Shown: positions 5,125 through 50,404 of the stretch, one piece after another
Position numbering within the stretch: position 1 is the stretch's first letter
How the letters are laid out: every line of letters begins with the position of its first letter
NCBI GenBank assembly: GCA_951406725.2
Contig: OX597823.1
Coordinates: forward strand, 112,902,001 to 112,966,000
Length of the DNA stretch: 64,000 nucleotides
Reading direction: 5' to 3'
Source: Octopus vulgaris
Lineage: Eukaryota
Program-made: the position numbers and the translations under genes
The notes under the pieces: model-generated
The model's database searches: none
Seen by the model: only the letters and a program-made list of their open reading frames with translations
What the model was told of the DNA's origin: nothing

Positions 5125-6520
5125 ACTTTACAATGACGTAAGAAAGTGAATTGCATTCCAGAAACTTCTTTATTTCAAAGAAGTACAAAACTTTAACAAC
5201 TTTCAAAGTAGGATTCTCTCATTTCAATGTGCTTGCTGTAGAGCTTCGGCCACTTCATGAAGATTCCGTGGACGTCCGCGAAACTGAAGGTGTCAAAGGC
5301 CTTTGACACAACCGTCTTCATCTTAACAAAGTCTTCAGTACCCAAATTTTCTTTCAGCTTGGAGAGTAACCAAAAGTCACAGGAAACGAGGTCTGGACTC
5401 AAGGGAGGATGACGGATAGTTTTGATGCCCATCTCTGTCAAGTATTTGTTTAGCAGAATAGAATTGTGGAATGTTGCTGCATTACCTCGTCTTGGTGCCA
5501 TCGACCCGAGTAGAAGAACTTTGGCTTTTGTGATGTGACTTTTTCCTAAATTTCTTCAAAAGCTCCACAAAATACTCTTTGTTCATCATCTGGTCAGAAG
5601 GACACCAGAGCATGTAGATGATGTCCTTACTGTTGAAAAAGAGGATAACATGAGCTTCCAGGTGAAGGTGCTTGCCTGGCTTTCTTAAGCCGCGAGGAGA
5701 CAAGATACTTCCATTGAGTACTCAGTCTCTTGGTCACTGGATCACAACAGTTGGTCCAGTTTTCGTCATACGTCATCGTAGACTCATTTACTCTTGGGTT
5801 GGAGGTAATTAACTCAAAAATCTCCCTGCAGTTACAGACGCTCCTTTCCTTTTGTTCGTCAATGACCAGACTGGGAACAAAACTTTGTACACATTTTACA
5901 CATGCTCAGATCTTCGTCAATAATTCTGAGTACAATTGCCGCATCATCGTCAAACTGCATGCTTGTTGTTTTTATAGTCACTCGACAGTTACCATCCAGA
6001 AAATTCCGAGTTTTTCCAATCCACGATGATATTCTGCGGCCCTTCACCATGCCACTCCACTCATCGTCCCTCATCTTTTCTCTACTATCCTTGAACCGTT
6101 CAGCGTACAATTTCCACATCATCGTCAAACTGTATGCGTTTTGTCTTTATAAGCACTCGATAGTTTCCATTCAGAAAATTCCGAATTTTCTCAACCCACT
6201 CTGATGTTCTGCGGCCCTTGACCATGTCACTCCTCTCAACATCTCTCATCTTTTCTCTACTATCCTTGAACCTCTTGTGCCAGCGAAAAGCAGATGACCG
6301 ATTCGCACAAGTTTATCCATAAGGAGTATGGAGCATTTCATAAGCTTCTGTATCGTTTTCTGCCAGTTTAGAACAAAAGCTTATTGCTTAGCAAGCTTCA
6401 AATTGTCCCGACTAAATTCTACAAACTAGGGAGCTGTAACAAGCGGTGTTTATTAGGGTGAGATTAATGTGGTGTCACATCCGATTTCCCTAGTCTGAAA
6501 AAAAATATTGGCCACCATAC
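5125..6520 (-). pseudogene. Decayed near-full-length mariner transposon
   Basis: AFRWHKRFKDSREKMRD (HTH), TYDENW..CDP, HPPLSPDLVSCDFWLLSKLKE and C-terminal YFE across frameshifted ORFs 5193-6128; ends approximate. Confidence 0.85.
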
Positions 6521-14350: not shown

Positions 14351-14670
14351 CAAAACGTACATAAATATCACACACACACACAGACATACACGCGCGCGCG
14401 CGTGTGCGACAAGGCTATGAATTGTTTGCGACTATAAAATTCTGCTGACAACGTATTAGTCAGAGCAGACCGCACTGTAGTAAGAAAGATGTATTTGCCA
14501 ATATAACGCGCAATGAGTACGAACCCGAAACCAAGTGGTTAAGCGAAATTCTTAGCCACAAGGCCATATATATGTGTTCATGTATGTTTAGCTGCATTTA
14601 TAGTTATAAATGTATAGGAATGTGTGTAGTCGCGCGCTTTCATACACACATGAATAGATAGAGAAACAAA

Positions 14671-15061
14671 AGCAGCAAGCAGGCAGAATCGTTAGCACGC
14701 CGGATGAAATGCTTAGCGGTATTTCGGCTGCCGCTACGTTCTGAGTTCAAATTCCGCCGAGGTCGGCTTTGCCTTTCATCCTCTCGGGGTCGATAAGTTA
14801 AGTACCAGTTACGCACTGGGGTTGATGTAATCGACTTAATCCCTTTGCCTGTCCTTGTTTGTCCTCTCTGTGTTTAGCCTCTTGTGAGTAGTAAAGAAAT
14901 AGGTATTTCGTCTGTCTTTACGTTCTGAGTGCAAATTCCGCCGAGGTCGACTTTGCCTCATCCTTTTGGGTTCGATAATGTTAGTAGCAATTGAACACCG
15001 GGGTCGATGCAATCGAATTACCCCTCTCCTAAAATTGTTGGCCCAGAGCCAAAATTTGAAA
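14671..15061 (+). mobile_element. Dimeric SINE A (full monomer plus 5'-truncated monomer with alternative tail)
   Basis: Core GTCGACTTTGCCTTTCATCC...GGTCGATAA occurs twice; junction at 14901/14902. Confidence 0.88.
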
Positions 15062-32781: not shown

Positions 32782-32886
32782 TGCGCGCACGCACACACAC
32801 ACACACACACACACACAAGACACTCAGTTTCATTAGCAGACTGATTTGTAGAGGCATAAATTGTAAAGTTAAGAACTTAAAATTAC

Positions 32887-32930
<44 letters not shown>

Positions 32931-32932
<2 letters not shown>

Positions 32933-33320
32933 AGGTGGCTAGCAGCAATTTAAAACAAATAAGGAAATAATTCACCGTCACTAATAGTGGCAAGAGCGAA
33001 GTGAATACCAGCATTGCTAGGATAGGAGACGTAGACTTCTTAGCCACGAAAGCACATGGTCTCTTTGTATTGAAAGGAGAGAAAACCCTCACTGTGAGCG
33101 AGATGCCTTAGATTAGCATGCTAATTTCGTATAGGAAATTAATACTCATCAGTAATGCACACTCCATCACAGTTGGGAGAGGCCAAATCACTTTGTCAAT
33201 ATTATGAAGAATGCTATTGGAATCAATGACTGATTTCACAAGATGGCAATGTAAAAAATTATAAAATAATCAAGGTGATTAGTAGCAGTTTAAAACCAAG
33301 GAAATAATTCACCTTCACTA
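32931..33320 (-). mobile_element. Terminally redundant 340-bp-period element carrying a hammerhead (retrozyme- or PLE-pLTR-like)
   Basis: Direct repeats 32931-32983 and 33271-33320; TA repeats on both sides; hammerhead inside. Confidence 0.65.
33091..33173 (-). ncRNA. Type I hammerhead ribozyme with intact catalytic core
   Basis: ACUGUGA-UG-GAG-U-GUGCAUUA CUGAUGA GUAU-uaauuuccu-AUAC GAAA UUAG-caug-CUAA UC^ UAAGGCAU-CUC-GC-UCACAGU; all three stems pair; predicted cut between 33111 and 33110. Confidence 0.85.
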
Positions 33321-33760
33321 TATATATACTGATGCAAAGTATGATCAAGGCCTACTAAATGAAAAAAAAATCTTGCTTCTCATTCGCATCTCCACGCAAG
33401 TTGCAATGGCTTTTGTGAGCACGTGATTTGTACAATTTTTCGCGGGTAGGAAGGAGACAGGACATTTCATCGCAGTATCTTATAATTATATAGAAATCAC
33501 TCAGGTTGCTGTTAAACATTTGTTACTAGTCTGTTCTAAATTCATGGAAATGTTGTTTATAATTCTAAAGTTTTGTTATTAAACTTTTGAAAATGGTGAC
33601 ACTACCTTGATAGGTGACGCGTTGGGGTGATGAATAACCAAGATGAAAGATGGAATGATGGTCGCGATTTGATAAGTTCAGAAATTAAGGTTCGTTTATT
33701 CGTTATTTCATTAAAGCCCGCTGTGTTGGCTGTGCAGATTTAATCATGAGTAGAATGTTG

Positions 33761-33842
<82 letters not shown>

Positions 33843-34039
33843 GTATATTATATATCATGATATCTATTTCAAATAGCTATGATATATTTTATTACAAATA
33901 ATTAAGAAAATAATTATTTAATAAATAATTAGATAATTAAATTAAATTAAGAAAATATGAAGTACGTCATAATAGTAATTTAATAATCTTATATAATTTT
34001 AATTATAAATATCTTGTAAGATACAACTGCACTTGTTTA

Positions 34040-34968
34040 TGGCTGACCAAGATTAACCTACCCAGAGTGCAGCGAATCATCGACGTCTTACTGGGGTTCA
34101 GGCCGGCCACGGTGGGGACTCCACTACATGCAGCGGTAGCATGTTGTCGACCAACAAGACTACAATCCTTTTGTCCACCATTGACTGACGGACACCAGTG
34201 CCAGCAGTTTGGGCAAACGCCTCGCCAATGTTGGGTTAGCGTGCTTTCTTTGCACATGGCTACGATGACTGGCTACTTGCACTGCTATCAGAAGATTGTC
34301 TGTTTCCAACGGGAAGAGTGGGCCTTAATTCTCTCCTGAAACTGGATGGCATGCGCTGGGTGTTTTCTTTTGGGATATGCGGCTTTAAGTTGTAGAGATT
34401 CGCCGCTTGTTCCTAGATGATGACGCACCGGAAGTATAGGCATTTCTCTTATTCCTTGAGATAAGGACAAATTAGTTTTCCATATGGGCCCACGAGTTCT
34501 GAGACTCCTGTAAGCGACCTCTGCCTCACCCACAGCCGTTGCAGACTCCTCAACAGGCCATTTATCCCCAGGACAAACAAAAACGTATTCTTTCATAACG
34601 ATAGGCGATAACTTGATAAGCCAATAACGTACGCTGTTGTTGCTAACACTGTAAGATTGTTTGTAATGTGAAAACGTCGTAAGTGAACACAACTTAAAAG
34701 TGCAGAATTATACAGGGCTGCTCAGCTTGCTGCTGCTGCGTCGACCAGTCACGTCTTGTCATATGTACACGTAATCATCTAATAGCGTGCCTAACGAGCT
34801 CTTCTAGACACGCCCACAACAGACAAGAACAAGCGTATGAATTTTCTCAGCAGAAGCTAATTGGTGCGATAAAGGCTTCAAAGGTTAGTGATAACGCTAA
34901 TCCGCTAAACGAAAAGTTAGCTTCGTTAATTAGCTGTTATCGGATTAGCGGGACCGTACCCACTACTG
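34040..34968 (-). mobile_element. 5' half of a decayed hAT transposon (TIR, subterminal repeats, BED finger, DNA-binding domain)
   Basis: End CAGTAGTGGGTACGG at 34968 with CGCTAA repeats; frameshifted WAHMEN*F...NLYNLK..HI..KHP and VDKRIVVLLVDNMLPLHVVESP...MIRCTLGR. Confidence 0.75.
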
Positions 34969-43363: not shown

Positions 43364-44103
43364 CTAGCAGTATCACCCGGCGTTGCTCGGGTTTTTTTCG
43401 ACCCTTTAGGATTGGAATTTTTGAAAAGTAAAACTTTTGCATTATGTAGCTTGTTATTCTCTTTAAGTGAACATCTTTCTGGTTGAAATACACCAAAAAA
43501 ATGGCGACATAGCAGTCAAAAAATCGTAAAAAAAGGGATTTTTATAGGAAAAAAGCACCTTTTTGATGTAAATAATTTTTGGTGTTAACATGGTCGGATT
43601 TGAAATTTGTTCTACTACGGAAGGAAGAGGAAGCCTTCTTCTATCATACTCTCAATTTTGGTCAACTTGCGCCGCAAGGCCTCGGAAGAGATAGTGTTAG
43701 TTGAAGGCTACCAAACCTGCCATACACAGACAACTTCAGTTTATTTCGACCCTTTAGAATTGGAATTTTTGAAAAGTAAAAACTTTGCATTATGTAGCTT
43801 GTTATTCACTTTAAGTGAACATTTTTCTGGTTGAAATATACCAAAAAATGGCGACACAGCAGTCAAAAAATCGTAAAAAAAGGGATTTTCATAGGAGAAA
43901 AGCAACTTTTTGATGTAAATAAATTTTCGTGTTAACATGATCGGATTTGAAATTTGTTCTTCTACGGAATGAAGAGGAAGCCTTCTTCTTTCATACTCTC
44001 AATTTTGGTCAACTTGCGCCGCAAGGCATCGGAGCAGATAATGTTAGATGAAGGCTACCAAACCTGCCATACACAGACAACTTCAGTTCTATATAGAGAG
44101 AGA
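43364..44103 (-). mobile_element. Non-autonomous Helitron family H2 with internal tandem duplication
   Basis: A|TC at 44103, hairpin plus CTAG|T at 43364; units ~43397-43741 and ~43746-44088. Confidence 0.88.
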
Positions 44104-47352: not shown

Positions 47353-47575
47353 ATTTGAAGAGAGTAAGAATGCTTTAAATATTTACAGTGAGGAACCAAA
47401 GACAACGATCACTATGTATAGTCGTTGCCCTATCGCGTGTAGCTGCTCCGCAACATTGCAAACGCAACACTCGGTTTGCATCCGCAAAACGCTTGTCGAA
47501 CTGTGTGCCTTTATTACTGGCGCATGCGCAGAACTATCCTCTGTACTTCGTTCTATGCATTAAATATATATTAAA

Positions 47576-47807
47576 GGCGGCGAGCTGGCAGAAACGTTAG
47601 CGCGCCTGGCGAAATGCTTATCGGTATTTCGTCTGTCGTTACGTTCTGTGTTCAAATTTCGCCGAGGTCGACTTTGCCTTTCATCCTTTCGGGGTCGATA
47701 AATTAAGTACCAGTTACGCACTGGGGTCGATGTAATCCACTTGATCCCTTTGTCTGTCCTTGTTTGTCCCCTCTCTGTTTAGCCCCTTGTGGGTAGTAAA
47801 GAAATAG
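47576..47807 (+). mobile_element. SINE family A, full-length monomer (tRNA-like head, Deu/Nin-like core)
   Basis: A and B boxes, core GCCTTTCATCCTTTCGGGGTCGATAAATTAAGTACCAG; TSD ATATATTAAA at 47566-47575 and 47808-47817. Confidence 0.93.
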
Positions 47808-48405
47808 ATATATTAAACGCACACGCAAACACACGCTCGCACACGCACGCACCCATAAGCACATATATTACAGCAGGTGTCATGATGCGCTCTGTCGTTA
47901 AGCAAGAAATGCTAATTAATTATAACGACACTATTAATGATGAGAACAGTTATTTTATAAATGACTAATCCATGTTAAATAGAGTTGTAATAATAGAAAA
48001 TCAATGAATTAGAGATTTTAGTACGCGCGTTAGTGTGATGCATAGAAATTTAGTGTTAACGCATGTTTCAATATTTATAGACCTCGTCAGTGACGCATAG
48101 CCTGTTGCATATATAGATTAATTACTGCTTTACATCATTGCCTTTCAAATGACGTAATCTGTGGCTTTGAACTATCAACAGCTTATTATCTTCGTCTGAA
48201 AGTGTTTCACATTATTATTTAGCGATGCCTTCGAGGAATACCTCAAATGTCACTGGTGATATATGTAGCGAATTTATTTATCCGAAAATTTTGGGAGAAT
48301 AAAACAGCAAATACTATTTATACTTAGTGTAGATCCAGAAATATAAGTTCGGTGACCTTTGCTTTGCTTTACTGATTTAAAATCAAGGACACCAACAGCT
48401 GAAGA

Positions 48406-48634: not shown

Positions 48635-49911
<1,277 letters not shown>

Positions 49912-50404
49912 TATTATTATCATTATTATTATTTTAAAGATTCAAGAAATAATGAAAGAAAATCTTAATTAGAAGCAAATTCTTTTAGAAGTTAATAAGT
50001 GGGTCTAGGTCGAATAGACGTAAGATTAAAGACGTCTCAATCGTCACTTTTATATCTTTTGTCAGGACTTTTGTAACCATGTAAGCGAGACCGCATTATT
50101 GTATATGCGTATGACTGTGTACTTCTGTGCAAAGTGTGTATATATGTACGAGGTGACAATAATATCATATCCGGTGGCACCTGACATCCATGAAATCGAA
50201 TCTTCTCTCATCAGATTCGATAGGAGGAATTGATAACTCCTTGTTCAGAAGAAATAAATACATAATATATAAGTGTACAAAGACCTTGAAAAGGCAGAGC
50301 ATACAATTGGTGGGAAAATTAAAAGAAAGGCGAAGGAATAAAGAAAAAAGAAAATTTGGCGTGTGTATGTGAGATGGGTTGATGCGTTCGCGTCGAGGTT
50401 AACA

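Follow-up and report, generated by a model that had tools for sequence, protein, structure and literature searches.

A 64,000-nucleotide stretch of the Octopus vulgaris genome (GCA_951406725.2, contig OX597823.1, positions 112,902,001 to 112,966,000; here called the window) carries a hammerhead motif on its minus strand, which raises the question whether this is a real and working ribozyme and how it came to lie there. The probable answer is that a type I hammerhead, part of a non-LTR retrozyme-like repeat, was copied by a Penelope-like element (PLE) into (TA)n sequence and now, as a passenger, decays neutrally within the intron of a hAT transposon that is itself broken.

The core, stem II, stem III, the palindrome and the cut site described in the initial annotation are all present on the minus strand as placed there (Table 1). 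A fold constrained to the hammerhead also reproduces the claimed layout of stem I, with 3 bp, a mismatch, 4 bp, a U bulge, 3 bp, a 2x2 loop and 7 bp. The window hammerhead has the core positions C3-A9, G12-A15.1, U16.1 and H17. With stems II and III closed, stem I open and covariation in the family, it is of type I, and core, stems and structural descriptor uphold the natural type I architecture that had been claimed for it. The descriptor has one match in the window and none in 150 block-shuffled windows, which together with the covariation rules out a chance motif. A second CUGA..GAAA arrangement at 48090-48066 (minus strand) fails the descriptor. The annotation had also proposed a comparison with the Rfam hammerhead models, which failed: Rfam gave no match at the gathering threshold over the whole window, and its hammerhead models gave none at E ≤ 10 over 32900-33400. 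As the motif is otherwise real, we regard this miss as a gap of the library and not as a structural failure.

Table 1. Hammerhead, repeat unit and host transposon features in window coordinates.
Feature	Position	Strand	Basis
Type I hammerhead ribozyme	33091..33173	minus	sequence, descriptor, covariation, folding
Hammerhead core: CUGAUGA	33152-33146	minus	sequence
Stem II GUAU/AUAC and 9-nt loop II	33145-33129	minus	sequence
Hammerhead core: GAAA	33128-33125	minus	sequence
Stem III palindrome AUUAGCAUGCUAAU, 14 nt	33125-33112	minus	sequence
AUC with C17 at 33111, predicted cut between 33111 and 33110	33113-33111	minus	sequence
Retrozyme-type unit, one period and ~55-nt terminal repeat	32929..33318	minus	starts at 33318 and 32981
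(TA)5 at 5' junction of unit	33319..33328		sequence; junction common to 18/19 hAT copies checked
(TA)n at 3' junction of unit	32888..32930		sequence
Left terminal inverted repeat of host hAT	34954..34968	minus	sequence comparison
Decayed hAT transposase exon 1, aa 4-231 of homolog P0001	34006..34590	minus	30-45% identity, broken
Transposase intron holding the unit	32850..34012	minus	homology ends at 32850, before 3' splice site

The covariation among homologs, another check named in the annotation, was found in the stems across the family. In 58 copies, 86.8% of the cells of the hammerhead structure are paired and 74 cells have double changes, counted as sequences and not as independent events, compared to 27.6 after shuffling (0 of 500 shuffles as high). 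One stem II pair changed from UA to CG in seven copies, one stem III pair from AU to GC in five, and three outer stem I pairs have double changes in 14-22 copies. Since the changes follow the splits between the subfamilies A, B and C, they amount to few events, about two to three. Measures based on pair counts and type counts were not above the shuffles (188/500 and 319/500, respectively), and RNAalifold returned an empty structure for the alignment A1. The pairs specific to the competing rod fold discussed below (columns 27-41 with 50-66) have one double change, and the covariation favours the hammerhead over the rod. An intact core is present in 27 of the 58 copies, and the core together with all 14 inner pairs in three, the window copy not being one of them.

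The hammerhead is part of a non-coding unit with a period of 337 nt in the window copy and 343 nt in the copy L002, which has the size and content of a retrozyme (a non-coding repeat of 150-450 nt with one type I hammerhead per period). We searched 2.8 Gb of genome sequence for the unit family. Three unit queries had 316, 345 and 543 candidates, the last one with a subfamily B query, of which the best 40 each were scored; the best 40 of the 316 candidates contained 43 matches. Two 21-mers from stem III, searched with at most one mismatch, had 65 + 30 matches, five of them shared, and the controls had none. There are thus at least 90 stem III matches in the genome, and they are dispersed, with two genome-wide occurrences of the exact 42-nt core. 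In total 81 hammerhead copies were recovered, of which 58 were kept; nine segmental duplicates were dropped, as were 14 copies with truncations or deletions. The unit family is old and dispersed, and contigs from four sequencing runs contain mixed copies of it.

Arrangements with more than one hammerhead are restricted to partial tandems and inverted pairs. There was no direct tandem with two complete hammerheads among the 81 hammerhead copies and no same-strand stem III pair about 343 nt apart among the 65 + 30 pattern matches, so that the ancestral tandem master is a putative one. Around 22 pattern matches on one contig (G000:C31) were rejected as a young array because they look like segmental duplicates of a single decayed copy; the six that were compared have flanks 92-96% identical and one decayed unit in each. 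Besides this contig, the group includes some contig ends (L029, L107-L112, L114, L133, L137). A distant relative of the unit at L212:2465-2720 (minus strand) has a decayed hammerhead and the same downstream hairpin and 3' end, and lies beside (AAG)n, which suggests further retrozyme families in the genome.

The window copy of the unit lies in the remnant of a DNA transposon. Many copies are homologous for a further 1.7 kb or so upstream and 1.9 kb downstream, which gives an element of ~4 kb. Like hAT (BED-type) transposons, it has a BED/hAT transposase, short terminal inverted repeats and 8-bp TSDs. The TSDs are perfect at the filled locus L036 and the empty locus L219, and match at 7/8 positions in L222 and 6/8 in L033; these counts are small since the full-length comparison covered four of 16 hAT loci with empty or partial introns. 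The transposase has 73% identity with P0001, a protein with relatives called BED-type or HAT C-terminal dimerisation. Its identity as hAT is taken from such names of homologs and from precomputed domains; Pfam scans run directly on the hAT fragments and on P0001 had no match. The closeness of the transposase at L031:3422-4084 (minus strand) to a lobster protein is 73% identity and to fish proteins 61-64%, and judging from these sequences a horizontal transfer of the hAT is possible. A GT-AG intron splits the transposase gene at amino acid ~231. The window hAT copy (34968-32850) is truncated, with exon 1 and the intron donor broken (AT, where L031 and L035 have GT) and exon 2 absent from the window.

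Inside the intron, the unit lies in sense to the transposase and ends ~70 nt before the acceptor. Among 30 loci with the start of exon 2, ten have most or all of the unit, three have remnants without the hammerhead and three have clearly empty introns with a short repeat at the site, while the rest are uninformative. The filled hAT copies have one 5' junction in common (18 of 19), unlike the copies outside hAT elements. In a tree of 56 units, all 24 hAT-borne units form one starred clade of 29 together with five solo copies (support 97/95), and the hAT label requires three changes on the tree. The window copy has a terminal branch of 0.089, above the median of the hAT-borne copies. The hAT copies are 17-19% apart, and their exon 2 and 5' trees are star-like; empty and filled elements are weakly split on the exon 2 tree (69/78) and not separated on the 5' tree, so some of the empty introns could be secondary losses. 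One full-length hAT (L222:2267-2322) keeps in its intron just a 58-nt terminal repeat of the unit, as if by recombination between terminal repeats. Judging from the shared junction, the TSDs, the empty introns and the tree, the unit would have been inserted into a hAT once and then spread by hAT amplification. Nesting of transposable elements is common in general; this host differs from other hAT (BED-type) transposons in carrying a hammerhead retroelement in its transposase intron.

How the unit itself moved is recorded in the 39 solo copies, i.e. the loci without hAT flanks. Most of their 3' ends are at +47 to +58, followed by (TA)n-rich sequence. Their 5' starts are variable, most of them from -304 to -503, with an inverted piece at the 5' junction in nine of the 39. 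Several copies extend beyond the second cut site or carry a second, inverted hammerhead. These are junctions of PLE type, where the 3' end is fixed within a microsatellite and the 5' end is truncated, with an inverted 5' copy, and the same anatomy of partial tandem, 5' truncation, inverted 5' copy and (TA)n is described for PLEs in the accessible text of PMC8557442. As every copy longer than about 190 nt crosses the cut site, the RNA template was presumably a circle or an uncut multimer.

Among the PLEs of the genome is a young one (L203, L206, L207 and L208, e.g. G000:C5:1040000-1049999) with copies 98-99% identical. It encodes a 479-aa ORF1 and an intact 781-aa RT with a CxxxxCxxC linker plus GIY-YIG at its C-terminus, and this domain order, together with the Cys linker, is the ground for its label as Neptune, which is not derived from a tree. 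Its 456-bp pLTR ends in (TA)n, and a related locus has an inverted 5' piece. Within the pLTR there is a degenerate motif resembling a hammerhead, 66 nt away from the 3' junction; it has U in position 3, A in position 8 and a CAUG loop as in the unit. BLASTN of the unit against the PLE terminal repeats of 30 + 16 GIY-YIG loci (drawn from at least 148 matches, the best 150 of 6136 candidates) showed no homology, and it is therefore the insertion anatomy that links the unit to PLEs. Supplement S1 of PMC8557442 lists a (TA)n preference for Octopus Naiads, and Naiads are described in that study as old remnants in cephalopods; the partner could thus come from either clade, Neptune-like or Naiad. Separately, a minimal hammerhead-like motif with a GUAC palindromic loop was seen at L176:2360-2420 (plus strand), 3' of a GIY-YIG ORF and about 130 nt before (TA)n.

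The missing sequence link to the pLTRs of these GIY-YIG loci would also be expected if a LINE other than a PLE had mobilised the element by target-primed reverse transcription with twin priming. Inverted 5' pieces are also known in L1 insertions, and the window itself has a LINE-like fragment beside microsatellites (49447-49941). We consider this origin improbable, as the combination of partial tandem, inverted 5' piece and (TA)n targets is the PLE pattern, the 3' flanks of the solo copies inspected have no poly(A) tail, and the PLEs of the genome have the same ends, with the listed (TA)n preference of the Octopus Naiads (PMC8557442) pointing the same way. That the unit is instead a solo pLTR, detached from a long autonomous PLE, might be proposed because hammerheads reside in pLTRs (PMC4209133) and the Xenopus retrozymes are described as related to pLTRs (10.64898/2026.07.22.740005). 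Upstream of position 1, however, the solo copies run into the previous period of the unit and not into coding sequence, and this periodic continuation reaches up to about two periods when inverted pieces are counted. A broken-off pLTR is thus very hard to reconcile with the copies, while a remote pLTR ancestry of the unit is possible.

Two further explanations give the hammerhead a function where it now lies. As a selected part of the hAT it would cut the intron of the transposase pre-mRNA and damp transposition, for which its sense orientation about 260 nt before the 3' splice site and the excess of introns with the unit (10 of the 30 exon 2 loci against three clear empties) could speak. We rate this as quite improbable, given that empty introns occur, the monomer is predicted to be switched off and the hAT copies show no excess conservation of the core, in a test that is blind to selection during the burst. 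Domestication as a locus-specific, active ribozyme of a host gene would fit the fully intact core and the rarity of its exact 42-nt sequence. Such cores are, however, found in 10 of 24 hAT-borne copies as well as in the wider family, at the neutral expectation in the hAT set, and the window copy combines its above-median terminal branch with two changes in stem I. The 150 longest of 206 filtered window ORFs contain no Pfam family of a host gene, a search which short exons would escape. Domestication thus seems highly unlikely, and so does any function of the hammerhead at the window locus. We return to the retrozyme-like passenger as the preferred explanation.

The activity of the window copy can be judged from its changes, its predicted folds and the decay of its relatives. 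Compared to the family majority, U1.4 to G creates an A.G mismatch that breaks stem Ia, and A2.7 to U closes the internal loop of stem I at its A.A opening. The initial annotation had expected a tertiary contact between stem I and loop II. Its canonical form, the Hoogsteen contact of U1.7 with an A of loop II described in PMC11875169, is absent across the family and cannot form as such in the window copy: A occupies position 1.7 here and in most copies, and the last base of loop II is U. Mussel retrozyme hammerheads are reported to lack the usual contacts and yet to cut at about 0.1/min (PMC7229834).

None of 200 shuffles folds as well as the 106-nt region (z -3.35), whose minimum free energy structure is a rod and not the hammerhead. 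For the monomer, ViennaRNA gives -17.6 for the hammerhead and -26.8 for the rod, a gap of 9.2 kcal/mol; these and the following energies are nearest-neighbour values that ignore tertiary contacts and are not calibrated on a known active hammerhead. In the rod, loop II pairs with GAAAUUA. The gap has a median of 10.3 kcal/mol over 57 of the 58 family copies, with one subfamily C copy at 0.0. When loop II is forced open, another fold that is not a hammerhead is still best (-21.6), so loop II is not the sole competitor. In the dimer, a double hammerhead (-52.2) comes close to two rods (-53.6), the all-rod dimer being more stable still (-59.4), and these energies bear out the earlier statement that the palindrome permits dimer folding. 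Pairing in the circular monomer is weakly above that of shuffles (z -1.5 and -1.9).

The cores of the hAT-borne copies decay neutrally. In 24 hAT-borne units the core has diverged by 5.5%, compared to 7.0% elsewhere (14/253 vs 471/6728, p=0.45), and ten intact cores were observed where 10.0 were expected. In the 14 copies of subfamily B the divergence is 5.9% in the core and 12.1% outside it. Pure decay after insertion from one master does not account for this better-preserved core, which could result from several masters or from ascertainment by the stem III pattern. With the stem I changes, the better rod fold and the neutral decay, the description of the window copy as probably active does not hold for the monomer, and by these predictions the window copy is most likely inert. 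Slow cleavage in vitro that can be detected is conceivable, although we would not expect it, and efficient cleavage as a monomer is unlikely. A dimer formed through the palindrome is likelier to be the working form than the monomer according to the folding energies, and for metazoan type I motifs the established model is activity as a dimer by way of a palindromic helix III (PMC4209133).

The probable course of events begins with an ancestral tandem, whose multimeric transcripts would have been cut to monomers by pairs of hammerheads joined through the 14-nt stem III palindrome. In a monomer on its own, loop II is predicted to pair with G12-A15 and stem III and to keep the ribozyme off. A PLE enzyme would then prime at a nicked (TA)n and copy a circular or uncut multimeric RNA for longer than one period, with a fixed starting point some 190 nt downstream of the cut site. 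The result would be the 5'-truncated copies visible in the sequence, sometimes with an inverted 5' piece. As the empty sites show, a copy entered the hAT transposase intron at a short (TA)n close to its 3' end, and this would have been one event, multiplied by the hAT; since then, as the statistics show, the hAT-borne copies have been losing core bases at the background rate. A more far-reaching version, in which the loop II-core pairing is a built-in off switch, only the dimer cuts and circles are spared, while the element is copied by a PLE without a shared pLTR and spread by a hAT whose transposase pre-mRNA it possibly cuts, is rather doubtful.

Type I hammerheads in short animal repeats are an already described class and the window copy is most likely inert, and thus the motif alone is ordinary. 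Known metazoan non-LTR retrozymes include those of Mytilus (350-390 nt) and axolotl (330/350 nt) (Cervera and de la Pena 2020, PMC7229834). As far as they are described in the accessible text of that study, the octopus unit resembles them in its type I hammerhead, non-coding period of 343 nt, GC content below 50%, mollusc host and lack of an LTR, and its hammerhead, like those of the mussels, is without the usual loop 1-loop 2 bases. It differs from them in consisting of copies of a monomer plus a fraction, with no tandem array found, in its low copy number and age, and in a stem III of 5 bp instead of 1-2 bp. Most circles of metazoan retrozymes are predicted there to leave the hammerhead free, whereas in the octopus unit loop II is predicted to block the core. 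This predicted self-block offers a testable answer to how retrozyme circles escape self-cutting, a question left open in PMC7229834.

With the retrozymes of the Xenopus study (Li, Clavereau, Pollet, 10.64898/2026.07.22.740005) the octopus unit shares the dispersed solo monomers and the co-occurrence of PLEs. That study, which according to its main text sampled no mollusc, reports pLTR homology for Xenopus, while the octopus unit had none in the GIY-YIG loci compared but has PLE-type junctions. It calls a retrozyme active if tandem copies with two or more complete hammerheads are present; in the absence of such tandems among the 81 copies and 90 pattern matches, the octopus unit is a dispersed monomer-type copy and not an active retrozyme. 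Most of the elements predicted there did not cleave (1/9 did). As in the Neptune and Naiad PLEs described in PMC8557442 and PMC4209133, there are (TA)n targets, 5' truncation, partial tandems and inverted 5' copies, and a palindromic loop 3 with a proposed dimeric hammerhead; unlike them, the octopus unit has no ORF and a hammerhead of canonical size rather than a minimal one. The junctions of the unit family thereby give anatomical support to the proposed mobilisation of animal retrozymes by PLEs. A search of the open-access literature at the level of listings found neither an octopus retrozyme nor one borne by a hAT, and the supplements of PMC7229834 and PMC4209133 may list cephalopod examples.

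Besides the unit and its host, the window contains traces of other elements. In the Pfam search of the 150 longest filtered window ORFs, the sole matches were a transposase fragment and DUF3929, both below the cut-off. The former is a remnant of a Mariner-like transposase at 5196-5905 (minus strand; Transposase_1, E 9e-5). A two-copy tandem of 347 nt with 93% identity at 43391-44088 has no match to the hammerhead descriptor. A dispersed, SINE-like repeat of ~240 nt is found at 14668-14906, 47573-47811 and other positions. The LINE-like fragment at 49447-49941 (minus strand) is the C-terminal part of an ORF and lies between (TCA)n and (ATT)n tracts, and its two best homologs are in Octopus bimaculoides, with 87% and 81% identity.
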